A stretch of DNA of 64,000 bases, from contig JAUSED010000005.1 in NCBI GenBank assembly GCA_030650425.1, forward strand, positions 78,932 to 142,931, in the 5' to 3' direction. Shown here piece by piece: positions 48,001 through 64,000 of this stretch (position 1 is its first letter; the number at the start of each line of letters is the position of its first letter). A model generated the notes under the pieces. It saw only the letters and a program-made list of their open reading frames with translations. It ran no database searches and had not been told where the DNA came from. Source of the stretch: Candidatus Omnitrophota bacterium. GTDB taxonomy: Bacteria; Omnitrophota; Gorgyraeia; Gygaellales; Profunditerraquicolaceae. The translations under genes were made by a program, and so were the position numbers.

Positions 48001-51000
48001 TAGGCGCCGCCTCGCCCATAACTGCCGCAGGGATAATTAACCTATTCCTTTCCTCATCTCCGGTTTCTGAATTGAGGCAGTATCTTGAAAATAATAAGAA
48101 TCCAATGGTAGGGAAATTTTTGAGTTGGATAGATAATCGGGGAGAATCACAAATTAATACAATATGGGAGAGCCAGCGCCGATTAGCTGAAGAAATAGGG
48201 ATATCAGAAATGACTATTTCTAATTACCTGCGCAGGATTCAGGCATTATTGCAGTTAGAAAAAAAGCCGCTCATTAAGATAGAACTAAAAATAAAGAGAA
48301 GGACAATAGCGGATCAGATAGAGGAATGGGCTTTAAATAGGGAGCCCAGCCAAAAACTCAAAGAATGGGGAATAAAAGAATTAGCTGCCTTGTTTGGAAA
48401 AACTCCCCACAGCATAAGGCAGGCGCTTCCCGCGATTAATAAAAGATTAACTGAACGAAACGAAGAGGAAGTAAGAGCAAATAAAAAAGAAGAGTCAGCT
48501 GAAGGCTATAAAAAAATAGCCCCAGCAGATGGCTTAGAGTTGTTTATACGAGAGGTTTTTAGGAAGATGGGTAAAGATGAGCAGCGGGTCTTTAATTACG
48601 ACTTTGAGGGTGGTAATGATATATTTAAGGGAACAGGATTAACCCTGAAGCGAGTTGAGTCATTAATAAGAAGCAGTGTTGTCAAGATTTGTAATGCGTT
48701 TGGAACGCAAGACGAAAAGGCAGCTTATGAAAGATATCTGGATTTCAAGAAGCAATTGAATGCAAGCCACAATAAAGAAAGCTTAATAGAAGAATTTAGG
48801 GTTGGTGAGAGCGTTGAGAAAGAGGCAGAGGAAAGAGATGTAGATGATTCTGAAGCATATTCTCAGGTTCAAGATAATTCCATTGATGTAGAGAACCAAG
48901 AGGCCGCCAAGCATATAAAACGCCCATCCTCCTCGCCGATTCATAACAGTGAGCAAAACCCAGAGGAAGGCTTAAGGCGGATCTCTGGAAAGGCAGAGTT
49001 TACAGAAAAGATAAAACCATATCTTGAGGTGGGGGCAATGTATATTTTGTTTATAGCGGCTTGGATAGTTTTTGGCATTATAGGAAAAGTGCTGGATATT
49101 ATTAAGCCGTTTCTATCTAAGTTAATAGGATTCTTACAGCAAAAAACTTCAAGCAGAAGGAAAGATTCTAAGATACATAAACATATGGGAAAAGGGGATA
49201 TTTCTAAGTTAGGGAAAGAAAATGGTGCCGCTTCGCCGCTGACGCGAAATATAGAAAGAGCCAACGCAATATTTAACAGAGTTCTTGAGGCAGCCAGTAG
49301 GAATTCAAAAAGAAAGTATGCTATTAAGCTCTTCATTAAAGAAATAGACGCATACGGTAGGGCTTCTTTAAGCGGCAATTATATTACAATAAATCCAAAC
49401 CAGTTAGGTAATCCAGATTTTGAATTAGCTAAATTAATGGGCCATGAGATTACCCATATAACCTTGGGGCATATTTGGATTGTACGCATTGGATTCAGGG
49501 TCACAACCGCATTATTTTCAATCCTGTTTGCCGCAATGATAAGCGGGATTATTACTGAATTTGACGCGCTTCTTATTGCCGTGGTATTTTTAGGTACGGT
49601 GTTGATGTGTTACTTGGTTACTCAAAGCGAAGCCGATAAGAAAGGTAAGCAATATGCGATATTAGCCGGATTTGGAAATGATACAAAACCTTCGGCTTCT
49701 AAAAAAGCCAGTCATTCCGGCTCGCCGGTAGAAATCATTAGATATGATGAAGTCGATAAGAATGGGGTATTATTTAACCGTTTTCGGTTAATCTATGGAA
49801 CTAATAACCAGCCGCAAAAGCGAATTGTAGAGGTAAGGCAAAAAGGTTTTGAGCCGGTATCTATGTTGAATTATACCTCGCGTAAGATTCACGATACATT
49901 CCCATATGCAGCTGAAGGGCTCTCTCAAGAATTTAGCTGGCATGGCGAAAAAATGCTGGGTGATATGCCGCATACTACCACTCAAAGCGCGCTGTTAGCT
50001 TTAGAGAGGATTAATATTACAGGGAAAACCGTGATTGACGCTGGAACCGGTGATGGAGTATTAGCTATTATGATGGCAAAGCAAAAAAGTGAAGTTAAAG
50101 CTGCGGATTTTCCTTGGATGTTAGAGTTAGCCAAGGAGAACGCAAGATTAAATGGCGTCTATGATTCTATAGAATTTATCGCAGCTACTTTTCAAGATTT
50201 TGGACGAAATTACACAGGGCCGGTAGATATTTTGGTAACTAACATTGGGCGCATGGGAAGTTATCAGAGATACGAGTCTCTATCTAATTTATTCAAGCGA
50301 GCGCAAATTATTATTTTGGCCGGCAGTGAAATGAGGCCTTATGCTCCGTATGCGGATGTTAATCATCCATTTCATCCCTACGACGGGTATCCCTTCTTTA
50401 AAGGAGATAAGTTTATTCCTCTACTCAAAGTAATAGTCAGAACAAAATATTCAAGCGCTGAATGGGCGGCATTGGTTCTTGCCGCCGCCTCGCCGGTCAG
50501 TCAGTTAAATCAGAAAGGCTTAAATTGGAAAGAATTTTTAGGCAGGGTAAAAGAAGCGCGGGTGATTTTGGTAAAAAATGATCTTCATTCTCCCTCAGGC
50601 GAAGCTCCTTGGATATTATCACCAACTGAGCAAGATAAAAAGGTATTCGCAGGAAATTACAACAAAGTTACAGAATTATTAAGGAACCTTCGTATCCTCG
50701 AAGCCCTTGAATTAGATACACCGGATCCGCACAACGATGTATTAGATGATGAAGGGTTTTTAAAGCTGATTGGGGCATTTATGGCTGGCGCCTCTAGCCC
50801 ATTGCGAAACAAACCCGCCGCCTCGGCCGCAGGTATTCCTAATAAAATAATAACCAGAAAGAGATTCGAAGATTGCCTAAGAATAAAGAATTGGGTTAAT
50901 CTTAAAGGCGGGTATAAGAAAGTTTGGTATCCGGGTTCCGGTTCTGATGTGGCGTTGGCCCTGTATGCTACTAATGGAGATGAATTTACCCTTACAAATT

Positions 51001-54000
51001 ATACACTCTTTGGAGAAGCGGATGATTTTAGCAACTTTGAGGGTTGGGAGAGGGAATATCATTATCATTTAAGATGCACCCACAGTTGGCTTAGCGTTAA
51101 TTACTATAGATGGAATAGTATAAGCGCGCAGATTTTCTCTGAATTAGAAGCGATAGGGGTAAATTTTGATGATGTATTAAAGACAAGGATTAATCCTGCG
51201 AGATTTAGACTGGAATTTGATTGGCAGCATCCTTCTGAGAAGATAGCCAAAACAAGGATTATTGACTATATAACTCCGGGCTGCGACTTTTATACTCCGG
51301 AAAACAAGGCAGATATCATAATTATCAAGGCGTTAGATCAATTTCACATTAACCCGCAGGACATGCTTTCTTTCTTAAATCAAAATGGATTTATAGTTAG
51401 CGATATTTATCTGGAGATCCTAGGAATCAGGCCCGTTGCCTTGAAGCTCAGCCATAAATTTGGATACGCCCATAACTTGCCATTCGGAGAATTAGTTGGA
51501 TTAACTACGGGTACGGATGTATTTTTATACAGGAAAATTTCCGCAGCCACTATTTTTAATGGCCCCTCGCGGATAAGTTCACCTATTAATCGCCAAGGGC
51601 AGGCCCCTCAAGATGAAGGCCTTAATAAACAGATTGAGGCGTTAATCAAGATAGTAGGGACAGGGGACGTCAGGGCATCTATTAAGTTATTCGAGATAGC
51701 AGAAGCAGGAAATTTAGGCCGTGGCTTTGTTACTGAGATTTTTGCCCTTCTGAAAGACGAACGTAGGTCTGCGCGAACCGATGCCGCGGTAGTGCTGCAG
51801 GTTGCAGCCTGCAAAGACATTGAAACAATGCTTGAACTTATTGAGCGGACAATAAATGACGAATCGTTAGCGGATGAACGCTACGATACGCATGGCCGTA
51901 TGACTTGGCCTCAGCGCCTTACCGTAAACATCATTAATGAAAGAAAAGGCCAATACATTTTGGAATCTTTAGAATCATTAAGAGGTAATTCTTTACAAAA
52001 GGATATGGTTATAGATTTTATCTTGGATTATGGCAAGTATATAAACGGCTTCTTTAACTTTGCGATCTTGCTCCTCGATAATAAATTATTAAATGATAAA
52101 CAAATCAACAAGATTATCTATGATGTATTTGGCGCGCCTGTTTCACTAAGTAGAATTCGTAAGGCAGCCATTTTTAGTCAACCTCAAGAAATTCTTCCGA
52201 AAGAATTAGGCCTAAAGATACAGACAGATTCTAAAGTAATTATCCTGTCCGGATGCAATTATCCGTTACTAAGGACAGAGGCTCTGATAGAGGATTTAAG
52301 ACACACATACCACTTCGACAGCCGGGTTTCATTTACGGAATGGCCCGTAGAGGAAACGCCCTTTGGCTACGCATTGGATGCCTATAACTTTTTGAAAGAG
52401 CGCTCTCAAGAAATACCTTCGCTTGGAAAGATGCTGAGAGCGATGGAAAGTCGCTCAGGAGAGATTATCGAGGCTTATAAAGAGGAGCTTTATAAGCCAT
52501 ATCCGAATTGGTATTATCTATTAAAAGAGCTCAATGAGATTATGCATCAGGTCCCTTATGACGCAAAATTACTTTTAGGCATCCTTGATTCTTATGCGAG
52601 AGAGATTTTCCATGAAGCTAATTGGATTAAAACATCGCAAGAGAGCATTCCCGGCACCTATATTATATCTTTATATGGAGGGTTATCTGCGCATGACACA
52701 CCTTGGATTTGCGCGGGAGAGGATTTATCAAGCCTTTTAGGCCGGATATTAAAGGAAAATCAGATTGATTGGCGCGCGGAAGAAGACAAGAGCTTAGCAG
52801 GCCTTAGAAACTATGCATACATTGTATTGCCGCTTTCATTAGTAGGCAGCGGTAACGAGGATTTACTGAAGGCCATAATCGGCATATACTTTTTACCAGA
52901 GATCGGTTCTCTTCGCAAGCCAATGCATTCGCTAAACTTAGAGTATGTGATTTCCCACACTGATTCCTCCAGAAGATTTAGCATCGATTTAAAGAAAATC
53001 ATAGATTCTTTACTAAGTACCTTTCCCAAGAACCTTTCTTCGCCGATTACTCTTGCCTGCGGTAAACCGTTGCAGCTAAATCCCGCCGCCTCGCCGCTGG
53101 CTGATAAAAAAAATCAAGATGAATTCAGGATGTTTGAATTTATGGATTTGTTAAGCCAGGATTTAAATCAACATTCCGCTGAGTTAGAGAAAAATAGCCC
53201 TAAGGTTGCGGTGTTTTGTTCTGCCAGGATTAATTCCGGAAAATATTGGGAACTGGCAAAGGCCTTAGGGGCTTCGCTAGAATCTTCCGGTTATACTATA
53301 ATTACCGGAGCTGGCCCGGGTTTGATGGAGGCGGTTGGCGAGGGCGCAGGCCAAACTATTGGGCTGAATATTAATATGCCGAATAAACAAATTCCTAATT
53401 TTTACGTAAAGGAGTGTTTAGAATTTCACAATTTCTCAATAAGAAAGGCTATATTTATCAAATACGCTGATGCCTTTGTAATCATTCCCGGAGGATTAGG
53501 AACTTTAGATGAGCTTCTTGAGGCCTTAACCTTAAAAGACAGGGGATATATCGATGCCCCAATCATTTTATTAGATAAAGGATTTTATTCAGGTTTATTT
53601 GAATTTCTAGAGGGAGTCGAACAGGCTGGTTTTTTGAGAAAGCCCCTTAAAGAATTATGCGTCCTTGTTGATTCTGTAGATGAAGTTTTGCGATATCTTA
53701 AACTAAATAAGGCGCCTCTCAAGCAGGGGAAAAATAATATAGATATTAAACAGGTTTTGGATAATCTCAAGGAGTCATTGGCCGAACTGCAAGGCATAGA
53801 ATCAGCGGTTGGTATTCTGGGCTCGCATTCGTTTGGGAAAGACTCTTCCTCTTATAGGCAGGCATATAATTTAGCCAGGGGTTTTTCCAGAGGTGGCAGA
53901 AAAATACTTTATAGGGGCTGTCAGGGGATTACCGAAGCAGTTGACAAGGCCATTGAAGCAGAAAAAGGCGTGGGTATATCTTTTTGGGTCCCGGATTATG

Positions 54001-57000
54001 AAAAAATTCAGCCGGTTATAGGTAAACGATTGGTTTCTCTGCACAGGTTCGCGCAGAAGATTCTTTTGATAACGCATAGCAGGCTTGGGCTTATTTTCTT
54101 TGCCGGAGGAATTGGCACGCTCGATATATTATCCGATGCTTTATGTTTGATTCAAAATAAAAAGATACAGGCAATGCCTATTGTATTAGTGAATAGAGAG
54201 TTTTGGCAGCCTTTGGTTAGCTGGCTGGAAACTATTTTGAAATCAGGGGCAATATCCAAGGAGGATATTGAATTAGTTAATCTTGTTAGTACAAATGAAG
54301 AGATAATGAAGATTATCGCCGCATCTTCGGTTTTAGGCGAGCAAGCGCGGGATTCGAGCGAATATCGTTTAAGTTCGCCTGTGAACGAATCCTGCGTAGG
54401 CCAACCCTTAGACAGACCCTCTCAAATTAGTAATGTAGACACTTTACACAACTCATCGCCTGTCAAGCAATTAGGAAAGAAAATGCTTCTGCGGTTAGAT
54501 ACCGATAAAAAGTATTCGAGCTCTCCGGCAATAATAGAAGAGATAGCCGCGGCAATTACAGATTCGCTCAAGCTGACTGATTACTCTGGTTCGCCGTTGT
54601 TCTCCTATACTTTCTGTTTCCCTGCCACAATACGTGGCGGAAGCTCGTCTATGTCCGTTTCACCTGTAACTTATGTAGCCTTGGTGGTTTTATATTCATC
54701 TACCTCGTTTTTGATAACAGAAGGAGCAGGATTATTAGTAAACCAGCTTTTTCTAATTCCGCAAATTATTTGCGCTCCGCCAATAGTAAAATATGCAACT
54801 AAGCCCGTTTCCTCGCCGGTAGGGGCTGTTGGCTTCAGCTCGCCGGTGGAAAAAACAGTTGGAGCGACGGTGGTGACGCGAGGCGCCGCCTCGCCGCTTG
54901 GTGAATGGTCAAGTGATAATCTTAGGCAGCAACTTAAGCAGATTGAAGGGAATGTTTTGAATTTGCTGAAGAAATATTCTTTGCCAGAGTTTACGGATAT
55001 TGTTTTACATCCTGTCGCGTATCGTTCTTTAATCACGTGGTTAAACGCAGTCATCAAAAGCCGTGAAGATATACAAGATTTCAAAAAAATGCTGCAGAGA
55101 ATGGAAAAAGACTTTCTGGGGAGTATTTCCGGATTTGTTGCTATAATTTCTCCTGAAGAAAGAAAATCTTTAGTAGAATCTTTAGAATCCTTTAAGCGGA
55201 AGGCAAACGATAAGTTAAATGGTTTTATTACTGAAGCAAGAGAGCTGTATGGAAGGTTTTTGAAGTTGACGCAGCGGGATTTAGAAAATCGTTTTCCGGG
55301 AGAAACTACTCTTATTCTCTTACGGATAATGAGGACAGAGCCTATTAACCGTGAGTGGAATAGGGTTAGGGAAAATGAACATTTCACTTTAGATCCGTAT
55401 CATGGCTATACAAAATTAGACTGGAGAGTGATTATTGTTGCGCAAGTGCCTTTCGGGAGAATCAAAACAACCCCATGGGTATTGGAATCAAGTAAGACTG
55501 AAGAAGAATTTATTGTTTCCGGAGGCCTTCTAAACGTTGTCCAAACCTTTGATAAAAAAGATAAATGGATTAAGTGGAGAGAAGCAAACAAGGATTATTT
55601 TTATGCCAAGCTAAACTCGGCTTCTTCGCCAATCCTAGAAAATAATCAAAGTCTTCTCGTAGCTGGACGAAGTCCTATCAAATTTATTGGCTTAAGCTTG
55701 CCTGTGGAGGGAAAGCTTAAAGAGGTTTTCCTCTATGATAAGCTAGAAGAGAAACTGGTGCCGGTAGAGGCCAAAATCCTTGATACTCAGGACCCTGAAT
55801 TCAACGGTTTTCAGGATGCTGTAAGGGAGTGGTTAGCCTATTCTAGGGATGGTTATGCTATTGATAAAGCTAAAGACCCTCTAACCGGAGAAATTATTAC
55901 TATTCCTCATATCCGTCCTCTTGCCAGCCAAATTATCCAGAATGGAATCACTACTAAAGAGCACTTTATCGTTTTTAAGACAGCCGAGCAGGGAATTATT
56001 GCCTTTGTTCGCCTAAAGTTAAGGCCGCGCAGTATCCTTGGTGCCGGGTTTATTGTTTCTCCGGTTATCCGGCAAGTTAAACGTTACGATACGGAAACTC
56101 TCTTAATGGCCGTGATTCAGTCAATCATCGAATTTAGCCTTCAACAATTGGGCAGGGTAAGGGTGTGGGCGGATCCAGCTAACCGAAAGATGCTGGATTA
56201 TATTTTGCTATTTGGGCCGATAAGAAGACAAGGAAAATTCCTGGTAACGGACGAGGCCGCGCGAAGAATTCTGTGGTACATCCGTAAAAAGATGGCAGAT
56301 TATACCGCAACTTTAGCTGAGCCGGAAGAGAAAAAGTTGGATGGTTCTATTTCCGGCGCCTCCTCGCCGCTGGATTTAACGGTTGGCTTAAGTATTATCA
56401 TCTCCTATGCCTTATTAGTTCCGGTATTTGATTTATACCTGCGTAGGACTATTCAGCGTAAGACCATAGAAGAATTTAAGAAATTCCCATATCCTGTTTG
56501 GATTATGACATTCGCTTTTCTATTATTAGCATGGAAATTCCCGCCGTTGCACAATATTATTTTTTACCTCACCGCATTTTGTCCCGGCATTTTCCTTTCT
56601 TTGATAACGACACTTTCTTTGGCGACTATTTTTAGCCACCGAAAGACCAAGAAAATCATTATACCTTATTATTTATTGCGGGAAGAAGTGAATTATATGT
56701 GGAGACTATATGTCGTTAATATGAAGATTATTGAAGCCGTTGATATCTTTTTCTCAGCTGTGGCAGTCGCCTTCTTTAGTTATTATACCCATGCAACAGC
56801 TTATTTCATACTAGTAATGCTTCTAAAAAGAGCCGGAGTTCTATATCTAGCCCGAGGGCTCACTAAGGAATTTTCTTTAGAGCTTGAAGAGAGATACGAT
56901 GGGGGCAGGGACTTTATAAAAAAGTTTATCACAACAGAGCAGTTATTAGGAACAGATATTGCGCTTAGAGCAAAGGGGGAGCATAAGATAAGCTATAATT

Positions 57001-60000
57001 GCCCGCGGCCAATAGCTTTTGCGTTTAGTTATAAAGGATTAGTTCTGTATTTAGAGGAACCGTATCTTGCTTATTATTTATACCCTTGGTTTATGCCTGT
57101 AGTCAGAGTGATTCAAGAGATCTCCGGCTGGAGAAAGGCAAGAGACCGCGCGAAAGATTCTCTTCCGCAAAGCGAAGCAGCTTGCGGCGGATTAATTCCG
57201 CAGCGTATTGAGTATAGAGATGGGGCCGCCTTGCCGCCGGGATCGCATATCGTCGTCTACGAGGAGAATGGGAATGTAGACGTTGTATATAGCCCATTGT
57301 TTAACAAAGGGTTACAAAACAAATCTTTAGGATATCAAGATGGCCCCGCCGCCGGCACTGAGCCTAATCGAAGCGCCTCGCCGGTTTCAGGAGAGACAGA
57401 ATTATCTTCGGCTTCCGCATGCCTTAGCCCCGCTAAATCCCGCGATAGCCCTAAGGGGAATAAATTCTTAACCTTAACTTCTGCTTTTCTTATTTTTCTT
57501 ACCTCCTTCCATCTTTACCTTAGTCCTTTGCGGGCCTATGCTAACCTTAAGGTTAATCTAAGCGTAATCACGCCCCAAGCGTCACAAGAGCGCCAAGAAA
57601 CCGAAGAGCTTTATAATCAGGCAAGCAGGCATCTAAAGAATCAAAAATACCAAGAAGCGCTGGATCTGTATATAAAGTTAATTAAGCTAGCGCCCAATTA
57701 TATAGATGCCTACATTGACAGGGCCTATCTTTATATCCACCTTGCTCAAGAAGCAAAACAAACAGGTAAAGATACAAAAGGCCTTAGGAAGAACAGAGAC
57801 AATGCAATGTTGGATTTAAAGAAGGCTGAGGCGCTTACTTTAAAGGCCATAAAAGAGAAATACTTTACTAAAGAAGAAGGCAATTTGGTATTTGCCTCAA
57901 TCTATAATCACTACGGATTATTTTATTATCACCTTGAAGGTGATTACAAGAAAGCAGTTAGTTATTTTGAGCAGGCCATAGGCTTAGAGCCGGATAACCC
58001 GATAAATCATAATGATTTAGGGGGAGCCTATTTTAAGTTAGGTAAATACGGCCTTGCCGAAGAGGCATATACTAAGGCAATTGATAAAGCAAAAGCCGCC
58101 AAAGACAATTACGCGGGTTCCCGCATTTACGCAAACCGCGCATTCTTAAGGTTTAAACTCGATAGATATAAGGCGGCAAAGCAAGACATACAGGAAGCCA
58201 CTAGTTTAAATCCCAATTTAAAGAATGATAATAATATCCAAAATTTATTAAAGGAGATTGAATTGAAACTTCAAGAGCGAGAAGGGGTTATTGATTTGTC
58301 TTATCTAAAACTCAATAACTCCAATATCCTTCAGCAGGCTTCCTCGCCGGTTTCGGAGAATAGAAGGGGACAGTTCTATCGTAACTGTTCATCGGCTATG
58401 GAGATAGACAGAGACGGTCTGGAGGATTCTAAGGAAGCGCTTATCGCGCCTTTGCAACATCCCTTAGGCAGGCATTTATATATAGGTACTGATGAGGAGC
58501 GAGACTTATCTAAATGCAGGCAATTGTTATTTGCAGCTTGTCTTGAACTTAGGATATGGAAGAAGCGATATTATTTTGAGCAAGTTGAAAACAGGATATG
58601 CAAGGATCCTTCGTTTCGGACAAAAATAGGCCTTATTGTCTTATTGCGCGATATCCTGCTTAATTATGACGCTTCTAACGTAACGGTTGCTTTTGTAGAC
58701 AGGCTTGAGGGTATTCCGGAAGAACTGATATCGTTCCTTTTAGATGACGAGATCTTATCAGCTTATTTGAATTATCAAGATGAACTTCGAAAATATAAAT
58801 ACATGGATGATAGGGCTATCGAAACTGGCTTTTTCCCATTTTATTATCTATGGTCAGCGTATAAACGCGGGGAAATGCGTGATGCCAAAGAACTCAAAGA
58901 GAGAGTTGTTAGCATCCTTAAGGGTTTTGGCTATGATAAAGCATTCTTCAAGCTCCTAAATGACTTAGCGCATAAGAAAAAGGCGGATTTTAGCCTTGAT
59001 AGCGGCGCAGACGAATTGCGGGTTTTCTTTAGGGCCTTATCCCGTAAAGATATCGTTGAGATTTTTAGACAGACCTTATCAACTCAGATTCTGCCTTCTG
59101 TTAAAAGGCATAGAGCTTCATCTGTAATACAAGGTACCGCCTCGCCGCTGAAGGAAATTGGATCAGAAACCCAAAGAGAAGCAGCCAGGGGAATGATGGT
59201 CATTGAATTGCCCGTGGATGCCGACTTGGGCGAGATCATAAATCACAAAATTGTATATGTTAAGAATGACGGGAATATTAGCACGATTAATGAAGGAAAT
59301 ACAATTAAACTACTACATCCTGATGGGCTAGAATGGAATCTTAGCTGCAAGGTAAGGGATTATCTAAGAGCTACATTTAGCTTAGATTACTCTCTCCTAG
59401 GATTAAAACCTCATCCCTCAACACTTGGAGCGATATGGGCAATGGAAAGGTATCCTACCAATAATCAGCAAGTCCTTGACGCGGGTTGCGGTGAAGGGGT
59501 TTTCACGATTTTGGCGGCTAATTTAGGAGCGAGTAAGGTTATAGGCGTTGATTTAAAAGATTTCATTATTGGACTCGCAAGAAGAAATGCTGAATTAAAT
59601 CGCTTAACTCATATTATTGAATATCACAAACAGGATTTCACAAAACCGTTACAACTATCTGTAAATAACATCAAGTTTGACAAGATCATAACTAATATAC
59701 CCTGTGGTTATACTTATATGGTTCCATCTTTATTGAGGCTTTATCCGGAAGTCAAAACCTTTATTTGGGCAGGTGATTACGTTCATCAAGAAGGCCGCGA
59801 GTATATCGTGGAGGGATCAGAAGAATATATTAGGGAGATTCAGGCATTAGGATTTCGATTCGTAGAAAAATTGATTATTCCTCAAAGAGGTTTGTTTTAT
59901 CCAGAAATTATTATTTGGAAGTGGGTGACATATATCTTAAAGCGGGAAATTAACGAAGCAGGCGCCGCCTCGCCGCTGGGGAAAAATGATCAAAATATCC

Positions 60001-63000
60001 TTATCCCTGAAATTATTTCTGAAGCTATTGCAGAAGAAGTTCAAAGAATGCCGGCTTGGGAACTTTTATCTGTTTTAGATCTCAAAAAGGCCAAGCTACT
60101 TTTTACTAAAAGCGGTCCTAGAGAGCTTACTGTCCACAAGATTAAAGTGCCAAAGCTTGTAAATAAGTATAAAGCGCCAGAGGGTTTAAGTATTCTGCCG
60201 TATGAACTTTTTGATACGACAGAATTTGAACTTTTATACAATAAAAAAGGATACCTTATCGCGATTTATCCGGTTCTCCCAAACGGATTCCTGATTAAAT
60301 CTGGCGAACGACTCCCTCACTATTTTGATTTTAGTGAATATTATTTTAAAATTCCGGAATTCGGTGATCCGAAAATGATTGAAAAATGGGATGCCTTCGT
60401 AAAGGATGTCGGCAGAGATCGGGAAGCAATACAGGCTTATGAGGATTTAATCGGGATAAAGGGTAAGCTTGAAAGGCGCCCGCGTTGGGTACCTTACATC
60501 TACGCAAATCTTGATTATCGGGATAATTTTCCATTTGCTCGGGCTTTTTACATTGAGATGTTTAGCCGTTTGATTAAAAAAGATGAAATCTCGAATAAAA
60601 TCTCTAGAGACATAATCCGGTCTATTCTTCCTGTTTTTCCGACTGTTTACCATCCGGGATCCCATTTATTGGATGATTGGAAATACATTTTAGCTGTTAC
60701 CAGGCGTCTTGATATCCAAAAAGACCATGATATTTTGGTTGTTGGCCCGGGGAATGGCCTTGACACTTGGTTTGTTTCTCGGCAAACAAGGCGGAAAATT
60801 TATGTTGCGGGAATTAATCCTTTGGAAGTTGCCAATACCAGGGCTGTCGCAAAAATTGCCGGGTTTAAGATAGAAGCCAGGATTTACGACAACATTATTT
60901 CTAAAGACGGCGTGACTGTCTTTAATAAGAGATTTGATCGGATTATCTGGAATATGCCCACATATTATCCGGTTGCCCCTAGAATCCGGGAAAGCCTTGA
61001 AGAATGGGAAGATAATGATTACGACGGTATGATCTTAAGGCGTTTTGCCGGAGGCCTTCCATTACTTCTTAAACCAAATGGAATTGCTTTGGTTTGGAAT
61101 TCCGCTGCCGGAAAACTTTTAGATGAGGTTGAAGAAATCTTAAAAGCAAGAGGAGCGCTAGATGTGGCAGTCGAAAAATACCCGGGTATGACGTATTTAG
61201 CCAATATCGAAATGGGCACGGAAACCATTCCTACCGCGCTTTACTTTATCCGCAAGGGAAAAAATCCGGATGCAGCAAGCGCCTATTGTGTCAGTTCGCC
61301 GCTGAAAGAAATAGTTGGAGCGACGGTGGTGACGCGAGGCGCCGCCTCGCCGGTTTCGGGGGGAATATTCCTAACTATATTATGGCCTAAAGACGGTAAT
61401 ATCTTTAATGCGCTCAAAATCTCTGTCATTAGTAGCGATATTCCTAATCTTGCGGATTCTCATAAGAGCAAGATTGAGGGCATCGTTTGTCAACAAGCCG
61501 GATTGCTTAATGATCAATTGGGCAGTATCAAAGACACTTTCATTCAGCGGCCATATCTTGATGTTCAGTTTAGGGATACTATTTATGGCTATATGACACT
61601 TACTGAGTTCTTTGGTTATTTGCGGATGGGATTTAAGGTAGGAGACAGCTTTATGGGAGGATATATTGTAGATTTCTATGGTTTCGGCAATCATAAGACG
61701 ATGCAGAAGCTCAGCGACTACAATAACAGAAGTATAAGCAATTATTTCTTTTTGCTCGCAGCGCTGAAGAAAATTGGTGGCGTTATCATTGATGCCCAGA
61801 AAGTGGTATATAAATATATTGGAGTCAACGAAGATTTTTTTACCGGATTTGACTTTGGCGAGCATCTAATTATTCAAAGGGCTAAAGTTAGGGGATTCAG
61901 CAAGTATCTTAGCAATGCCGCGTTTAATATGTATGATAGCGCGAGTAACTTCAGTGGTGGTTTTAGGCAACTCAAACCTTATTTCTATCCTCTGATGTTC
62001 GGCAAGGGGAACCTTGGAGAGCGGGCGAATGACCCCTCGTTCATAAATTCCCAGTATAGTCTTAGTCATATTTTTTCTCCTTCTAAAAAAGTATACCACG
62101 CTCTTAACGGGGTTGTCAAGAATATTAGTCTTGCCGCCTCGCCGATAAGGATCTCTCCATTTCTCAGTGACATATTTAGAATGTTTCATATGTTTGAGGT
62201 AAATGAATCTATTTTAAGCGAAGACGGGAAAGAGGCGCAGCAGTGGGTTAAGAAAATCATTGGCACAATGCAGAGGCCCCCTGTCGGCCTTATTACAAAT
62301 AATAATGCAGAAAAGCTCATAGCGCTTATGCCTAATCCACGGAAAATATCTCTCGGTGGTTGGTTTGATCTTAGCAGCCTCAATTTTGGAAGCGATGATG
62401 AATTTGGCTTTGGTTGTTTAAGGCCTTGCCCGCATTGTTCAGAAGGGAATACAAGAGCGCGGGTAACAAATCGCACGCTGCCGCCTGCAATAAAGCTTAT
62501 TGAAGAGATGCGCAAGGAAGGCCAGCAAGATACGTTAAGAGGCCTGAAAACTTATCCCGGAAGGTTTCTGATCCAAGGGTGGAATAACACCGACCTTTTC
62601 TATTGGTGTGATCCTTTCTTTAGAGTCTATTTAGACGGCCTTATTGAATTTATCGCGCGTCATTACAAAGATAGAAAATTCCGCCTGCGGATAGCCACAA
62701 TCGGCCCAAACATAGATGACTGGCGCGCATTTATCGTAGCAAAGAGTATTGACAATCTGGTGCTTCAATATCCTGAGTTAAGAAATAATATATTTAGTCT
62801 ATCCTTGCATTTGGCCTTATTTAGCACCAGAGGGTTTGATTATAATACTATCTCTGCTTTGTATGAGCGCAAGATAAATCCACAGCGGCTGGCTAAGGTT
62901 ATAGATAACTATGTGGCCCGCTACGCAGCTATTATTGGCGTTCTCAAGAATACGCTAAGAACGGTCAAAGTATTTCTGTCAAATGAAAGCAGTGAATTTG

Positions 63001-64000
63001 ACTCTCTTACGCTTACTGTATTAGATAGGGTCTTAGAGAGGGTCAATATCAGTGGTGGCTTAAAACAGAAGATTATTGATGGAGTAGCTGCAAGAGAACT
63101 AAACAGTGATGTAATGACCCCGTACGGCTTTACTGTAAAAAGCGCTAACATTACGCCATCCGGCCACCGGGGGTTTGATTTTGTAATTGGGTTATTCAAG
63201 CTTGCAGGCAGATGGAAAGAAGCTGAACGTTACAAGAGGGCTCAAGCAGTAATGAACTTCGCTCCATACCGCAGTAATTATGTCCCAGAAGATGGGTACC
63301 CTCAAACCATAATTTTACCGGGAGAAAGAATTATTGTTCAAAACGAGAAAAGAGAAATGTTTAAATTACCTCTGCAACAACTCGATCCTGATGCTGAATT
63401 TCTTGCCCGCTACGGACTACCTGACAAAAAATCTATAACTAAATATTTATCTTCAAGCCCATTGGCCGAAGTCGCCGCCTCGCCGGTGATAAACAGGCAA
63501 TCCATAACTTATGAAGAATTTGCCGATGATAAACTAGTCAGATTATTACAAAGCGCATCAGAAGAAGAAGTATGGGAGGGCATAATTCAATCCTTAGAAA
63601 AGCCAAGTCTCACTAAGAAAGAGGTGTCGGTAATTTTTGAGAATATTGTAAAGATATGTTATATGGAATATGGATATTACAGGTTCTCCGGTTTTTACTC
63701 TAAGGAGAAATTCCGCGAATTTTTTAAGAGGCTATTAGCATTTAAAGAGGAAATAACCGAAAGGATATTTGTAAATGAAGAAATTAAAATTCTATTCAGG
63801 AAAAGAATTGAAATTCTGAACAAAGTTTTAGATCTATCTGCGGCCGTTCCTTATGAGGTAATTCACTACCAAAGAGAGGATAGGATCATTCCTAAAGACA
63901 CCGATGGTTATTCTTTACCTTTAGCATTTTTAAGAATAATAGCTTTGACTATTTACGATACGTTGAAGGTTAATTTGACAAATAAGGTGGTTGCTATGCA
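1..64000 (+). CDS. Internal fragment of one giant stop-free ORF (21,332 codons in the window, truncated at both edges), encoding a mosaic multi-module protein
   Basis: In the phase with codons at 3,6,9..., my by-eye translation pass from 3 to 63998 met no stop (selected stretches were checked codon by codon). The ORF track lists only three short plus-strand ORFs, all in other phases, as expected if this frame never closes in the window. Recognisable protein domains occur in this phase along the whole length. Confidence 0.9.
3..269 (+). other. C-terminal part of a CheA-type histidine-kinase ATPase (HATPase_c) domain
   Basis: The translation VKDDGKGINKEKIIKRAEELGFI..QQILNLIFLPEVSEAKDSREGTGIGLATIKKSIEAVCGQINVKSKTGQGTQFSFSLPC matches the DDGxGI, ILNLIF-PGFS, GxGxG and G-GT-F blocks of CheA-like kinases. 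Confidence 0.75.
1095..1745 (+). other. Alpha-amylase-family (GH13-like) C-terminal fragment, region IV onward only
   Basis: LLFAENHDERPALDAF resembles GH13 conserved region IV (FxxNHDxxR). It is followed by AAVIILSTEAHMLIPLAQIYG and a beta-sandwich-like tail (GDTIAVINYSDGREKVRIDL). The N-terminal catalytic regions are absent, and the module starts directly after the junction at about 1056. Confidence 0.35.
2990..3990 (+). other. RelA/SpoT homologue module (HD hydrolase-like plus (p)ppGpp synthetase-like domains)
   Basis: The HD part reads GKSFKSGETYFHHALAAAKTLL..AAFLHKL. The synthetase part reads AEIKSRVKSAYGMFEKISSGRR..ALKDILGTHII..KGYEAIHIDVEI, which matches the RelA_SpoT pattern (RxKS.S...K, D..G.RI, GY.S.H). 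I checked the translation codon by codon at 3660-3790. Confidence 0.75.
4890..5300 (+). other. CheR-like SAM-dependent methyltransferase domain
   Basis: IKVLCAEGVSHFKDGPKFFTASRLAILLRE..FDIYVVDTDMSALEQAAYGFYD..FDLITYFFKEYVL parallels the CheR pattern (RIWSAGCSTGEEPYS..ATDID..AL..A..G.Y..FDLIFCRNVLIYF). Confidence 0.55.
5610..6030 (+). other. Second HD (SpoT-type metal-dependent phosphohydrolase) domain
   Basis: AYELARQIHRGKKRDNGEPYLMHPIAVVDIF..ALIDHDVFEE matches the SpoT/HD signature (H.GQ.R..GEPY..HP..VA ... HD..ED). Confidence 0.6.
7293..7437. mobile_element. MITE-like 145-bp palindromic element inserted in-frame, flanked by an 8-bp direct repeat CACGATTC
   Basis: The terminal inverted repeats are GTAATGCGTCGGTCAATGGGGG (7293-) and CCCCCGTTCACTGACGCATTAC (-7437). 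The inner hairpin is GTCATTGCGAGCGAACGAAGTGAGCGAAGCAATCTC / GAGATTGCTTCGTCGCTGCGCTCCTCGCAATGAC. An identical CACGATTC occurs at 7285-7292 and at 7438-7445. Confidence 0.8.
8109..8228. mobile_element. Second MITE-like palindromic element (~120 bp) inserted in-frame, flanked by the direct repeat TTATTG
   Basis: ACTGTTGCGAAATG (8111-8124) is the perfect reverse complement of CATTTCGCAACAGT (8212-8225). The inner hairpin is CGTCATCCTGAGCGAAGCGAAGGATCTCG / CGAGATTCTTCGGCCTTCGGCCTCAGAATGACG. TTATTG occurs at 8103-8108 and at 8229-8234. Confidence 0.75.
8880..9060 (+). other. HEAT/PBS-lyase-like repeats
   Basis: LLLRIAKDSNHLIRKDLAVSLRQLLAHDIHAEILNELINDADREVREEALV fits the HEAT_2 pattern (d.d..vR..a..aL). 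Confidence 0.4.
9636..9708 (+). other. Internal signal-peptide / TM-like hydrophobic segment
   Basis: KLLAAFVFLAYLAASIFSPIVSRA|DSVQ lies about 35 codons downstream of the junction ISSSPI (about 9531). Confidence 0.5.
10760..11440 (+). other. Paralogous module copy A (unknown function; H-x-H motif), followed by a junction and a GerE HTH array
   Basis: LKEHYTEIIVALAMNFPSRIEP...IRYLQEMAGNFELQFCVVSPK..PLLIFSKEL...RFVPFASAVAHTQAYL...LEISWF aligns by eye with copy B at 31235-31985. Confidence 0.6.
11446..12345 (+). other. Three GerE/LuxR-type HTH units
   Basis: The three units read WTDRELEIWRLWAKGVDREAIGKALNEGERFIKRVISKIITKFNI, LSEREKKILWLFIAGYNPKAIALTLSLPEGILLSDILFAMKQKLRV, and LAPSELKLLQKILEGKKMKQI.... 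Each follows the LTxRExxVL..a.G...keIA pattern. Confidence 0.55.
15451..15537 (+). other. Internal signal-peptide-like segment with an AxA-type site
   Basis: GASPIRVMAAGIALITYLHLVLFTPVFA|AEQALKA lies directly after the junction NSSPLAEG (about 15414). Confidence 0.55.
16555..17420 (+). other. TPR repeat block
   Basis: Repeated W/Y..G..Y...G....A...Y..A motifs, for example LWIVVGNYYQNIGDAENAIRAYKEAVEV, WQLAGEIYYKLGDLNQARDAFAIS, and VRLGDIYYQQGDFKQAAKFYADALKSD. Confidence 0.7.
20540..21035 (+). other. GGDEF diguanylate-cyclase domain (GGEEF active site intact)
   Basis: [78 protein letters not shown]. I verified this codon by codon over 20520-20820. Confidence 0.9.
21525..22070 (+). other. RsuA/RluB-family pseudouridine-synthase-like domain, catalytic Asp motif lost
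   Basis: TEGLIILTNNPHLKERLQNNIISQPERYRVSIEGKVSEEDL...ILEIYFSRRGEREILVLFKNFGYSVKNITRTQIGLISPQDLKPGSYRRLKWNEI parallels T.GLLLLTNDG.L...L.HP.....K.Y.V.V.G......L ... L.EGRNRQVRRMF...G..V..L.R..IG...L.DL.PG..R.L. The position of GRLD reads TPAQA. Confidence 0.6.
22262..22900 (+). other. Protein-kinase-like fold module
   Basis: EGGFKRVYKIVLRS..FFVKVVKA (Gly-loop/Lys-like) and FADSKPENVIIHHKSQIGYRGTLIDMDNI (catalytic-loop D.KPEN and DFG-like DMD). Confidence 0.45.
22990..23200 (+). other. ThiS/MoaD-like beta-grasp module (tentative)
   Basis: IKIAINDKEVLVPERTTLLEILNDCYVDINTMDVELNGNLL resembles ThiS (I.vNG......g.Tl..LL........vAVe.NG.iv). There is no C-terminal GG. Confidence 0.3.
24790..25235 (+). 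other. TPR repeat block
   Basis: ANLLNDFGAICLDQGRYSLARILFEVGL.., HFQLGYVSYLLGEFNLAFAYFQTAKRLG, and GFNLVSICKELGDFDNALKEFQEMMQ. Confidence 0.6.
27500..27620 (+). other. HExxH zinc-metallopeptidase-like motif region
   Basis: VRIIIHEYVHYYSFYSPIMQSESFAEVFAE contains HEYVH with a downstream Glu. The assignment rests on the motif only. Confidence 0.3.
29190..29960 (+). other. Sigma-70-family-like module (region 2 and region 4 HTH)
   Basis: Region 2-like: IIRFNMGLIKKIIASYKV...LEDAAIFGAKIAALKYHPERGVKFMTFAWNVIKHEINKIL, compared with nlrLV..iA.ky...DL.QEG..GL..A...fd...g.kFsTYA.wwIr. Region 4-like: KDLFREVVCLE..DTADQFGFSIVAKQRGIKRQTVTKAYYLVLATLR. I verified this codon by codon at 29220-29460. Confidence 0.55.
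30232..31005 (+). other. Low-molecular-weight phosphotyrosine phosphatase / ArsC-like module
   Basis: IKVVFLCNGNRWRSAAMYLW carries the CX5R(S/T) P-loop (C-NGNRW-R-S). A DP-containing loop (ADVLDPDKKEI) lies downstream. Confidence 0.55.
31235..31985 (+). other. Paralogous module copy B, followed by a junction and an XRE HTH array
   Basis: LKEDYLDSLIKIIMAFPSNIDP...VRNIQELAGDFELQFTVIFPK..PLVVFSREL...RFVPFAFSVGHTHGLA...IELAWF aligns with copy A at 10760-11440. Confidence 0.6.
31990..33080 (+). other. Array of about seven tandem XRE/Cro-C1-type HTH units
   Basis: LKQTRRAMDLTQEELAERL.., LRESLGYTPAKLAKVIGYTEVDILHWENAEAWIP, LRQIREKMGLSQKELVNRLG.., LRKDLDYTKESLGRKVGYSRTSVAKWEKGLQNVP, LREFLGYRAEKLARELG..ILRWEEGKEWIP, LRQIRKEVMNLLQKEFGEKVGYSQNISIYLREKG, and INEELGLNITDLISLL... 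Confidence 0.7.
33630..34200 (+). repeat. Three tandem ~64-aa (~190 bp) repeats of unknown function
   Basis: Each unit contains (K/R)KY(R)KI(Y)RA..L...(E)WGFL(N/D)W.SAVKA.G..P. Examples are LRKYRKIRRAFLFLREKGFLSDWNSAVKATGGQP, IKDKYRKIYRAYLLYGIEWGFLNWASAVKACGAKP, and IKKRYPQLFISFIFCQEEWGYLDWSSAVRKTGNQP. Confidence 0.7.
35340..35900 (+). other. TPR-like repeat block
   Basis: AEQLLNDGQYAEAIKLFKQVV, AVDLFEQRNYGKAKGVWKKVL, and AKAYFISGKEHYLRGNYRRAINYFRKVLDV. Confidence 0.55.
36050..36660 (+). other. Second sigma-70-like module (weak region 2; region 4-like HTH)
   Basis: EIVDTHLWLVKLAAIRYLRN.. and AVRQVVTLAFQGLSMEFITRRTELNEKEINQYLKQGGQEIQSLAGL. The C-terminus is paralogous to 33370-33500 (RKVLYLALNHEDMDNIIRLTGLTQEEIDRHLIEGGEKIQKISGL). 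Confidence 0.4.
38400..38760 (+). other. GNAT acetyltransferase-like module
   Basis: AFITAFVLGSLIRHNGYGIKIFRTAIKALKDRKYTSLFLIT resembles GNAT motif A (V.p..rg.GiG..L.......a...g...i.L). Confidence 0.45.
38865..38876 (+). repeat. Junction 12-mer GCCGCCTCGCCG (Ala-Ala-Ser-Pro), perfect copy
   Basis: Exact match, codon-aligned (start divisible by 3). Context: GPAASPVLGK. Confidence 0.95.
38945..39065 (+). other. Transmembrane segment
   Basis: FLVLKVVVVGIIAAGVILVAIAYLFSFIYRFFYFFL. Confidence 0.6.
39822..40165 (+). other. TPR repeat block
   Basis: EVNNLFKQGRFREAVGKLRELLS, ALHMLGSAFIGLKKPYTETMFCLDSALRL, and LGLGLTYNKLGLPDKALGCFEKIIEG. Confidence 0.55.
40975..41530 (+). other. Polytopic membrane module (about 5 hydrophobic helices)
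   Basis: WLSIFPAALFWAGYYLF, VIILASIALIGLTTIVFPSL, FLFSGIYFFSMIIFSALCSVFIL, and FKAFLVFMGAFFISDIVAMF. Confidence 0.6.
41823..41834 (+). repeat. Junction 12-mer, perfect copy
   Basis: Exact match, codon-aligned. Context: NPAASPLAEE. Confidence 0.95.
43555..44340 (+). other. Radical SAM domain
   Basis: ITSKCNLQCAPCIAQ has the CX3CX2C motif at 43590-43613. It is followed by WFVGGEPSLYG (the GGEP motif) and IDTNGTF. Confidence 0.7.
45420..45900 (+). other. HEAT-like repeats
   Basis: IIQQIGGKRAARKLANIFNERDMSWQVKILDMVGTM, AVRNFNPEIVNEAVCGLRNLV, and DAVKLLTNL... Confidence 0.35.
46280..46990 (+). other. Calcineurin-like / PPP-family metallophosphoesterase domain
   Basis: VLVIPDIHCQ (DxH), IQIGDVISRGPE (GDxxDRG-like), LLGSHELL (GNHE-like), VVHAGV, and VGHSP. 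The motifs occur in the canonical order. Confidence 0.7.
49250..49660 (+). other. M48 (HtpX/Ste24-like) zinc peptidase module with following TM helices
   Basis: DAYGRASLSGNYITINPNQLGNPDFELAKLMGHEITHITLGH resembles NAfa.G...I.i..gL...l...El.aVlaHE.gHi...H. It is followed by IGFRVTTALFSILFAAMISGII and LLIAVVFLGTVLMCYLV. Confidence 0.65.
49950..50330 (+). other. PrmA-like class I SAM methyltransferase domain
   Basis: HTTTQSALLALERINITGKTVIDAGTGDGVLAIMMAK..AADF..LELAKENARLNGV..VDILVTNI. Confidence 0.6.
50484..50495 (+). repeat. Junction 12-mer, perfect copy
   Basis: Exact match, codon-aligned. Context: LAAASPVSQL. Confidence 0.95.
53085..53096 (+). repeat. Junction 12-mer, perfect copy
   Basis: Exact match, codon-aligned. 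Context: NPAASPLADK. Confidence 0.95.
53202..53700 (+). other. LOG / TIGR00730-family (Rossmann, PGGxGTxxE) domain, copy 1
   Basis: KVAVFCSAR..GYTIITGAGPGLMEAVGEGA..FVIIPGGLGTLDELLEALTL. The PGGLGTLDE motif was verified codon by codon at 53487-53513. Confidence 0.8.
53800..54300 (+). other. LOG-family-like domain, copy 2 (more divergent)
   Basis: AVGILGSHSF..ILYRGCQGITEAVDKAIE..LIFFAGGIGTLDILSDALCLIQ. Confidence 0.55.
54835..54896 (+). repeat. 62-bp double-junction repeat, copy A (SSPVEKTVGATVVTRGAASP)
   Basis: The 40-bp core AGTTGGAGCGACGGTGGTGACGCGAGGCGCCGCCTCGCCG (54857-54896) is identical to 61313-61352. The 22 bp upstream are similar, with several mismatches. Confidence 0.9.
54885..54896 (+). 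repeat. Junction 12-mer, perfect copy
   Basis: Exact match, codon-aligned. Context: RGAASPLGEW. Confidence 0.95.
55980..56230 (+). other. GNAT-like module
   Basis: GIIAFVRLKLRP..GAGFIVSPVIRQVKRYDTETLLMAVIQSIIEFSLQQLGRVRVWADPANRKMLDYILLFG. Confidence 0.35.
56380..56870 (+). other. Polytopic membrane module (about 4 helices)
   Basis: TVGLSIIISYALLVPVFDLYL, VWIMTFAFLLLAWKF, IIFYLTAFCPGIFLSLITTLSLATIF, and IFFSAVAVAFFSYYTHATAYFILVMLL. The module starts right after the junction GASSPL (about 56364). Confidence 0.6.
57456..58220 (+). other. Signal-peptide-like segment followed by a TPR block (resembles a stand-alone secreted TPR protein)
   Basis: KGNKFLTLTSAFLIFLTSFHLYLSPLRAYA|NLK is followed by YNQASRHLKNQKYQEALDLYIKLIKLAPNYIDAYIDRAYLY, YNHYGLFYYHLEGDYKKAVSYFEQAIGLEPDN, and NDLGGAYFKLGKYGLAEEAYTKAI. 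Confidence 0.6.
59400..59900 (+). other. PrmA-like class I SAM methyltransferase domain
   Basis: HPSTLGAIWAMERY..QQVLDAGCGEGVFTILAANLGASKVIGVDL..ARRNAELNRL..FDKIITNIP. Confidence 0.65.
59964..59975 (+). repeat. Junction 12-mer, perfect copy
   Basis: Exact match, codon-aligned. Context: AGAASPLGKN. Confidence 0.95.
60690..61230 (+). other. Class I SAM methyltransferase-like domain
   Basis: HDILVVGPGNGLDTWFVS..KIYVAGINPLEVANTRAVAKIAG..FDRIIWNMPTYY (an NPPY-like motif) ..LKPNGIALVW. Confidence 0.5.
61291..61352 (+). repeat. 62-bp double-junction repeat, copy B (SSPLKEIVGATVVTRGAASP)
   Basis: The 40-bp core at 61313-61352 is identical to 54857-54896. It lies immediately upstream of the antisense TA cassette. 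Confidence 0.9.
61341..61352 (+). repeat. Junction 12-mer, perfect copy (left border of the TA cassette)
   Basis: Exact match, codon-aligned. Context: RGAASPVSGG. Confidence 0.95.
61380..61865 (-). CDS. vapC: PIN-domain ribonuclease toxin (VapC-like), antisense to and nested in the giant ORF
   Basis: This is the 161-aa ORF in the track. The four PIN acidic positions occur in canonical context: IFVDSNIFIY, VVAELLHRL, LLTNDALNLALM, and ATNDRDFERI. Its ATG (61863-61865) abuts the TAG stop of the upstream small gene (61866-61868), a typical TA operon layout. Confidence 0.85.
   Translation of the reverse strand: MLAKVKSGKKIFVDSNIFIYHFLGINDNATNFLQRCEQKEIIAYTSVIVVAELLHRLMIAETIEIYNISSHKAVSYLKSHPQITKELSKCHIAINSIPKLNIKIWPLNESVFDTAQLIIKQSGLLTNDALNLALMRIRKIRNIATNDRDFERIKDITVFRP
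61866..62069 (-). CDS. Small antitoxin (AF2212/DUF104-like), 67 aa from the internal ATG
   Basis: MTKTILGIYERGVIRPLSKVPLAEHQRIEIRFELP matches the ..aiYenGvlkPlepl.LpEg.rv.i pattern of PIN-associated antitoxins. An AGGAG SD lies 7 nt upstream of the ATG at 62067-62069. The track ORF (107 aa) over-extends 5' across the promoter. Confidence 0.7.
   Translation of the reverse strand: MTKTILGIYERGVIRPLSKVPLAEHQRIEIRFELPKTTTEVTRAIIHIKRGIAKILAESPNFSPLNN
62077..62119 (-). promoter_or_regulatory. Sigma-70-type promoter plus Shine-Dalgarno for the antisense TA operon
   Basis: The minus strand reads TTGACA (62119-62114), an 18-nt spacer ending in TGG (extended -10 TGn), TATACT (62095-62090), TTTTTAGA, AGGAG (62081-62077), AAAAAAT, then ATG. 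Confidence 0.65.
62133..62144 (+). repeat. Junction 12-mer, perfect copy (right border of the TA cassette)
   Basis: Exact match, codon-aligned. Context: SLAASPIRIS. Confidence 0.95.
62400..63200 (+). other. Possible second radical-SAM-like module
   Basis: FGFGCLRPCPHCSEGN carries CX3CX2C at 62415-62438. No other motif is confidently recognised. Confidence 0.3.
63474..63485 (+). repeat. Junction 12-mer, perfect copy
   Basis: Exact match, codon-aligned. Context: EVAASPVINR. Confidence 0.95.

Follow-up and report, generated by a model that had tools for sequence, protein, structure and literature searches.

Genes of Omnitrophota known as 'Archaeovorin' or as multi-enzyme giant genes have been described in two preprints (West-Roberts et al. 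2023, bioRxiv 10.1101/2023.11.21.568195; Nielsen & Lui 2026, bioRxiv 10.64898/2026.06.07.730766), and the points at which the encoded giant proteins are cleaved are unknown according to West-Roberts et al. The DNA analysed here (hereafter 'the window') is a stretch of 64,000 nucleotides (nt) from a Candidatus Omnitrophota bacterium (GenBank assembly GCA_030650425.1, contig JAUSED010000005.1, positions 78,932 to 142,931), which is spanned by one giant open reading frame (ORF) that, judging from its sequence, is of this multi-enzyme giant-gene type. Our subject is a direct repeat with two copies in linkers between the protein-sized modules of this gene, the second copy lying next to a toxin-antitoxin (TA) cassette on the opposite strand. 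It seems, with what we consider slightly better than an even chance, that the identical 40-nt core of this repeat is the footprint of a recent recombination or gene conversion between linkers of the giant modular gene.

The resemblance to the described class is considerable. As in that class, the ORF measures tens of thousands of codons and has many transmembrane segments, with at least 16 strongly hydrophobic segments in the window (Kyte-Doolittle mean of at least 1.8 over 19 residues; hydropathy alone being a crude criterion for a transmembrane segment). The Pfam domains along it, at a G+C content of 41%, are HATPase_c, HD_4, GerE, TPR, GGDEF, several HTH_3, GNAT, Radical_SAM, Metallophos, two PrmA, M48 and two LOG, so that no single domain dominates and distinct enzyme and regulatory domains tile the polypeptide. 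This list matches the frequent domains of both preprints (West-Roberts et al. 2023; Nielsen & Lui 2026), HATPase_c, Radical_SAM, TPR, Lysine_decarbox, GGDEF, methyltransferases, GNAT and HD being present in the window too. Furthermore, the nearest relatives sit in Omnitrophota assemblies; for the LOG module and the embedded PIN gene they come from Omnitrophica/Omnitrophota assemblies, with two in metagenome-assembled genomes (MAGs) labelled Planctomycetales. A word-indexed search with 1001 amino acids (aa) of the window returned no relatives, which were then found by an exhaustive protein search. What differs are the [AS]SP[VLI] junctions, the double-junction spacers and the antisense TA cassette described below, since a term search of both preprints gave nothing on junctions, linkers or antisense genes, and cleavage is mentioned there only speculatively. 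A C39 or S8 peptidase and a SecA-DEAD-like domain were not seen in the 21,332 residues scanned (the N-terminus being outside the window), and the only peptidase-type match within the window is a weak one to M48 (Pfam).

Motifs that mark the boundaries of exchangeable parts are known from polymorphic toxins, i.e. VENN in CdiA and PxxxxDPxGL in Rhs, the Rhs motif being a cleavage site as well. The likeness is that a short conserved peptide, together with its DNA, marks such a boundary and offers homology for cassette swapping. However, CdiA and Rhs have one boundary per gene, between a constant body and a variable toxin tip, whereas the window has dozens between unrelated enzyme-sized modules; moreover, the motifs are unrelated and cleavage is putative in the window. 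In modular polyketide synthases and non-ribosomal peptide synthetases, modules are gained and lost in frame by recombination between repeated boundary sequences. Such duplication and deletion of modules at repeated boundaries of very long modular genes is comparable to what is proposed here, but the modules of these synthases are paralogous and form an assembly line, whereas those of the window are unrelated whole proteins.

The core of the repeat, AGTTGGAGCGACGGTGGTGACGCGAGGCGCCGCCTCGCCG, is found at 54857-54896 and again at 61313-61352 (exhaustive exact-repeat search), within a longer match of 65 nt between 54835-54899 and 61291-61355 (91% identity, spacing 6456 nt; repeat finder). With its 40 nt it is the longest exact direct repeat of the window, the runner-up, which is also a junction pair, having 20 nt and the maxima in 20 order-1 Markov simulations of the window being 15-18 nt. 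Likewise, when 27 nt of the core are searched for with a tolerance of 3 mismatches, the window has exactly two matches, versus 0 in 100 shuffles, while a tandem-repeat scan of the window gave a single trivial array only. A search of two large collections, of metagenome and genome contigs, with 39 nt of the core gave no match. The spacing equals 3 x 2152 nt and both copies lie within frame 3, where they translate to SSP-x4-VGATVVTRGA-ASP. All 13 core codons are identical between the copies and all are four-fold degenerate at the third position, whereas the 22 nt ahead of the core hold 5 differences, 4 of which change the amino acid. A first-pass annotation of the window had proposed two copies at these positions with an identical 40-bp core, the longest exact repeat of the window, at an offset of 6,456 bp or 2,152 codons, each with two junction motifs around one and the same spacer, all of which is borne out by these results. 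The pair could in principle stem from the assembly, i.e. from a chimeric join or a local duplication at a shared k-mer. This is very unlikely, as a read exceeds the repeat in length, the flanks of either copy are unique, no stop interrupts the 64-kb frame in the copies or anywhere between them, and linker elements of the same kind are present in independent assemblies; in fact, even a mis-join at the 40-nt repeat would still require both copies in the genome.

Both copies belong to a system of junctions that runs through the whole gene. The motif [AS]SP[VLI] occurs at 62 sites of the giant ORF, compared to about 2 expected from residue frequencies, and the distance between successive sites is mostly 230-1045 aa, which is the size of an ordinary protein. 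Proteolytically processed polyproteins are recognised by a short motif that recurs where one independently folding product borders on the next, and the window has such a motif. Linkers often carry two motifs 8-60 residues apart, and the S-type (SSP) precedes the A-type (ASP) in 11 of the 12 two- or three-motif linkers that hold an S/A pair, which makes the double junction a general unit of the gene. All junctions of the window are in one codon phase. The S-P of the junction is encoded as TCG-CCG at 33 of the 62 sites, versus 1.6 expected from codon usage, and in relatives at 11/11 (L007), 6/17 (L001) and 4/18 (L008) sites. A-type junctions are almost always GCC TCG CCG, and S-type junctions are free in their choice among AGC and TCN codons. 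As a whole, junction DNA behaves in a concerted way. A Chi-like role or a rare-codon pause is conceivable for TCGCCG. The A-type junctions start around nt 24,600, save for a possible site at 15447 (GCG TCC CCA), and before that point nearly all junctions are single S-type ones with varied codons; the two parts of the window (1-24000 and 24000-64000) may be of different history.

Among the relatives, [AS]SP[VLI] is enriched in a subset of the long proteins and loci (P0165, P0166, P0196, P0205, P0221, P0259, L001, L002 and L008), for instance with 11 sites versus 0.5 expected in P0165, and with 5 in P0166, 9 in P0205, 14 in P0221, 17 in L001 and 18 in L008. Other long multi-module proteins (P0212, P0263, P0187 and P0286) lack it and over-represent other peptides (RSELR, ARSE, AGFGA and GARLA), RSELR occurring 14 times in P0212; in P0170 a D.AM[LM]T pattern was seen by eye only. 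This suggests that boundary motifs are lineage-specific. The locus L001 (1-11802, on an Omnitrophica RBG_13_44_8b contig) is one long coding region in four overlapping frames (1-3651, 3540-8330, 8204-10387 and 10213-11802) with junction motifs in all four; the split probably stems from frameshifts that the assembly introduced into a giant ORF.

That the junctions are also the places at which modules are exchanged follows from the comparison with relatives. The conserved 443-aa family that precedes copy B has members that are modules of other giant proteins as well as free-standing ones, and the module of the window is co-extensive with at least 25 Met-initiated free-standing proteins of 420-540 aa. 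When the window is aligned with P0165 and P0166, the identity of this module runs from one SSP motif to the next, while the flanks are unrelated. Upstream of copy A, the LOG module is co-extensive with free-standing homologs of 427-469 aa (~450 aa), and its best match is an Omnitrophica fragment that is likewise bounded by SSSPI. Because homology starts and stops at SSP motifs amid unrelated flanks, the junctions are the breakpoints of a mosaic whose modules are exchanged as units.

The spacer between the two motifs is not restricted to the window either, as its family, [VIL]GAxVxT[RV][GL], recurs in linkers of two related genomes. The protein P0165 (locus L007) has two tandem relatives of it, SVGALMRTHGETISSSPV and VIGANVATRGRVS (SVGALMRTHG..SSSPV and VIGANVATRG), with synonymous differences in the DNA, and these are preceded by a hydrophobic Cys/Pro-rich stretch that resembles the one upstream of copy A. 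In the Omnitrophica genome with locus L008, VGAVVGTR stands directly beside the stop of an embedded PIN gene, its Arg codon being AGG versus CGA in the window, and further LGAxVxTVL copies are present in linkers of that locus. Given the synonymous differences and the switch of Arg codon family between genomes, the spacer is conserved as a peptide while its DNA drifts. The linkers of L008 (1-15918) also hold several dispersed DNA repeat families of their own (72 nt three times, 125 nt twice at 94% identity, 61 nt three times and 32 nt five times), whose translations include the recurring spacers ERLLRRRVANRGLLAMTDN and VANWLTVHSSRFTE. That these repeats (ERLLRRRVANRGLLAMT) might be palindromes like the repetitive extragenic palindromic (REP) elements is not supported by folding, and no claim is made for it.

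These data bear on the question whether the two cores are simply kept identical by selection, acting on a nucleic-acid or peptide function such as protease docking, a translation pause or an element at the 3' end of the TA operon. The recurrence of the spacer peptide family in three genomes would agree with such a function, as would the fact that a copy adjoins the PIN stop in L008 as well as in the window, the fixation of junction codons as TCG-CCG far beyond codon usage, and a 7-bp GC hairpin in the core (GCGAGGC-GCC-GCCTCGC). Selection on the peptide, however, does not reach 13 identical four-fold sites, and across genomes it is the peptide and not the DNA that is kept, as both synonymous changes and the Arg codon-family switch demonstrate. 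Nor is there a minus-strand gene at copy A for an operon element to serve. As for the nucleic acid, the folding energies of the junction regions and of both strands of the core equal those of shuffled sequence (z -0.8 to 0.6, or -1.0 to 0.6 for the junction regions), and Rfam families were found neither in the window at gathering score nor in 54500-62600 at E<1. We consequently rejected an RNA or DNA structure at the junctions or the core, and regard selection on the core as an unlikely explanation of its identity.

Recombination between linkers, which we favour, could have proceeded as follows. The element consists of an S-type junction SSP[VL], a spacer of the above family and an A-type junction AASP[VL], and the linker formed by it is a boundary between modules that each equal a whole ordinary protein, with the two motifs probably serving as processing or flexible-linker sites. 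Two linkers of this kind would have acquired the identity of their cores through non-allelic homologous recombination or short-patch gene conversion. The crossover would have taken place within the spacer, most likely as part of the insertion of the six-module block 54897-61290, and would have put a second copy of the spacer between the 443-aa module and the slot of the antisense vapBC genes; alternatively, conversion would have homogenised two older linkers. Since the junctions share a codon phase as well as a GC-rich core (TCG CCG), exchanges of this type would keep the frame of 21,000 codons open. Through the two present copies, a stretch of 2152 codons could be lost or doubled in frame, and the in-frame outcome that the first-pass annotation foresaw is indeed what junctions in a single phase entail.

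With regard to the age and direction of the event, the core identity is presumably young, because all 13 four-fold sites match while paralogous modules of the window are only 32-36% identical. Copy B would be the derived one, as the 443-aa module lacks the spacer in its orthologs, which terminate in one SSP. The setting of copy A, on the other hand, looks ancestral, given these ortholog ends and the Cys/Pro-rich stretch that precedes copy A and the P0165 elements alike. In further agreement with an exchange between linkers, patchy in-frame direct repeats also bracket the antisense TA cassettes of two other loci. They consist of sequence of the respective giant gene at that place. In L010 this repeat (9611-9727 and 10514-10630) has 117 nt at 91% identity and a spacing of 903, and in L011 a duplication of ~240-290 nt (9404-9640 and 10718-11005; spacing 1365) has diverged but contains a patch of 42 nt that is perfect; each of these elements occurs only twice in ~6800 residues.

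Several points weigh against a recent exchange. No variant without the block, or with the block duplicated, was found in the collections searched, and neither was a close relative of the locus, which means that the event is reconstructed rather than observed. Part of the similarity is functional constraint, since the spacer peptide is conserved across genomes, and selection at the nucleotide level could have kept the identity perfect. Also, for RecA-dependent exchange an identity of 40 nt is near the lower limit, any cleavage at the motifs is putative, and the composition of the block is no different from that of its flanks.

A discrete block between direct repeats could also be an integrated site-specific mobile element of 6.4 kb, with the repeats as its attachment sites or as a long target-site duplication. 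Besides the flanking repeats themselves, the different neighbours of the block modules in relatives and the direct repeats around the TA cassettes of L010 and L011 would be in line with this. Yet neither the block nor the rest of the window has an integrase, transposase or relaxase domain (Pfam), terminal inverted repeats are lacking (repeat finder), and linkers like this in-frame repeat are ordinary, their type being seen at other junctions and in other genomes. For a transposon or insertion sequence in particular, a repeat of 62-65 nt that is imperfect compares poorly with the short, exact target-site duplications of 2-15 bp. Together with the shared composition of block and flanks, this leaves a mobile element as a decidedly unlikely source of the repeats.

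The features of this part of the window are listed in Table 1. For the block between the copies, the first-pass annotation had named a 'GNAT-like' module, a polytopic membrane module, a TPR block and two methyltransferases. The TPR module and one PrmA-like methyltransferase of S-adenosylmethionine (SAM) type were recovered with Pfam and the membrane module by hydropathy, but the 'GNAT-like' module and the second methyltransferase had no Pfam match at E<5, and a sixth module, of unknown type, has to be added at 58350-59147. In the 443-aa module, motifs like those of SAM methyltransferases were seen by eye only. In the linker upstream of copy A, the odd hydrophobic Cys/Pro-rich stretch spans 54597-54812. 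A comparison of the window modules with one another (self-BLAST) revealed no more than three pairs of paralogs, all of them old (32-36% identity), and at such identities the block was rejected as a recent duplicate of another part of the gene. In one pair (10545-11426 and 31035-31976; 36% identity over 290 aa) the paralogs are whole modules with junction motifs at each boundary, and this pair is an old module duplication inside the gene.

Table 1. Position of the giant ORF and of the features around the two repeat copies in the window (+, forward strand; -, reverse strand).
Feature	Position	Strand	Details
Giant ORF	3-63998	+	21,332 codons without stop, running off both window ends; ~50 protein-sized modules; frame 3 is the sole open frame
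Double LOG (Lysine_decarbox) module	53097-54374	+	Upstream of copy A; Pfam E 2e-51
Junction-rich linker	54372-54896	+	S-P motifs start at 54375, 54456, 54522, 54591, 54813, 54840 and 54891
Repeat copy A	54835-54896	+	S-type junction AGC TCG CCG at 54837-54845; spacer VEKT-VGATVVTRGA; A-type junction GCC TCG CCG at 54888-54896
Block module 1, 491 aa, no family	54897-56369	+	Internal SSPI at 55623; no Pfam match at E<5
Block module 2, polytopic membrane	56370-57383	+	Hydrophobic segments at 56370, 56556 and 56721; 25% identity to P0165 membrane module
Block module 3, TPR repeats after own signal-anchor-like segment	57384-58349	+	TPR_2 E 1.5e-18; matches to 13 further TPR-type families
Block module 4, 266 aa, unknown type	58350-59147	+	Homologs P0202 and P0230 match query residues 25-254
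Block module 5, PrmA-like SAM methyltransferase	59148-59975	+	PrmA E 1.2e-17; paralog at 49239-50495, 33% identity
Block module 6, conserved 443-aa family	59976-61304	+	1414 matches; identity to P0165 77%, P0166 69%, P0168 63%; no Pfam match at E<5
Repeat copy B	61291-61352	+	S-type junction AGT TCG CCG at 61293-61301; spacer LKEI-VGATVVTRGA; A-type junction at 61344-61352
PIN toxin gene, vapC-type	61380-61865	-	161 aa + stop; PF01850, E 3e-15 over whole profile; antisense, codon-aligned in giant frame
AF2212-like antitoxin gene	61866-62069	-	67 aa, ATG at 62069; E 4e-8; GGAG ahead of ATG; stop abuts PIN start
Promoter-like site TTGACA-18 nt-TGnTATACT	62090-62119	-	11/12 positions, extended -10; best match in 10 kb scanned
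A-type junction closing the TA slot	62133-62144	+	GCC GCC TCG CCG; junction motif

Copy B is followed by a slot of 264 codons (61353-62144) that houses the TA cassette. Their adjacency, which the first-pass annotation had pointed out, was confirmed in that 27 nt separate the end of copy B from the stop codon of the PIN gene, the cassette being antisense to and codon-aligned with the giant frame. The cassette is an intact, putative type II VapBC TA operon. The PIN residues D14, E52, D128 and D149 are invariant among 12 homologs, full-length PIN homologs reach 75% identity, and homologous cassettes, free-standing ones included, have antitoxins of 63-67 aa that directly abut the toxin. A promoter-like sequence similar to that of the window, TTGACA...TGGTATAGT, also lies upstream of the L002 cassette. 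Other minus-strand ORFs in the window resemble antisense noise, and the one tested had no Pfam match.

The cassette is purged of codons that would be stops on its complement. Among the 23 Leu and 16 Ser codons of the PIN gene not a single one is TTA, CTA or TCA, whose complement is a stop, and the chance of this is ~3e-7 under the codon usage of the giant ORF. Free-standing PIN homologs have 8-17 such codons, and the number of antisense stops in free-standing homologs is 1-15. The closest homologs with DNA (L002, L008, L009, L010 and L011; 53-66% identity), on the other hand, all lack them, and each of these loci is open over its full length (1.1-20.5 kb) in the complementary frame. They come from two Omnitrophota assemblies, two MAGs labelled Planctomycetales and, for L002, an unclassified read-archive (Logan) contig. 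The cassette is therefore embedded antisense in the same manner in six giant ORFs of the data set, including that of the window, while homology between these ORFs is confined to the TA segment. To our knowledge, no similarly conserved whole operon lies antisense within a coding frame elsewhere. The next-closest PIN homologs (L012-L023; 43-51% identity) are from Methanothrix, Methanotrichaceae, Methanoperedens and other methanogen-related archaea, and one cultured member of the Omnitrophota preys on methanogen-related archaea, which hints at a possible capture of the cassette from archaea. No record of the PIN protein itself was found, and when metagenomes were scanned with the PIN alignment, no relative exceeded 46% identity.

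Beyond the TA slot, the module at 62145-63485 (447 aa) has no Pfam match and carries CLRPCPHC, a CxxxCxxC motif typical of radical SAM enzymes; a similar Cys-rich stretch lies downstream of the copy of the 443-aa module in P0168. Elsewhere in the window, a direct repeat of 117 nt (32211-32327 and 32691-32807; 71% identity, 480 nt apart) falls within a series of HTH_3/HTH_31 domains, where an Aca2/YdiL-like match is present too, i.e. a tandem array of small DNA-binding domains.

In integron arrays, TA cassettes with their own promoter, sometimes in reversed orientation, are thought to guard the array against deletion between repeats. Like chromosomal integron arrays, the window is composed of unrelated gene-sized units that are split by a repeated element, among which a TA cassette with a promoter-like site of its own is embedded. 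The window units, however, are fused in one frame, and its repeats are coding linkers of 12-60 nt. Whereas integron attC sites are imperfect inverted repeats that fold as single strands, the junctions have neither a structure signal nor an inverted-repeat family. No integrase domain is present in the window (the gene ends and flanks lying outside it), and the TA cassette of the window, unlike that of an integron, must stay free of stops on the complementary strand.

One might go further and regard the linkers as the 'intergenic space' of a fused, stop-free stretch of genome, with motifs that act both as cut sites of the polyprotein and, by virtue of their fixed GC-rich codons, as in-phase homology for the gain, loss and exchange of whole modules between giant genes. 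The double junction around VGATVVTRG would then be a recent crossover scar, and vapBC, perhaps captured once from methanogen-like archaea and recoded to be stop-free on the complement, an addiction module that protects the gene from deletion. Taken as a whole, this proposal is speculative, and we consider it doubtful.

As for what the repeat itself conveys, it would be the clearest trace of a recent module exchange that the window has, with the specific in-frame deletion or duplication of 2152 codons as its prediction. The wider question to which these observations speak is how the giant genes of Omnitrophota are built, kept intact and made into working proteins. A boundary code, [AS]SP[VLI], often doubled around a conserved spacer, splits the product of 21,000 residues into ~50 units, and its positions are also the breakpoints at which modules were exchanged among relatives. 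Both this boundary code of a giant protein and a conserved antisense TA operon within giant genes seem to be undescribed, and the latter might be a means by which such repeat-rich giant genes are stabilised.

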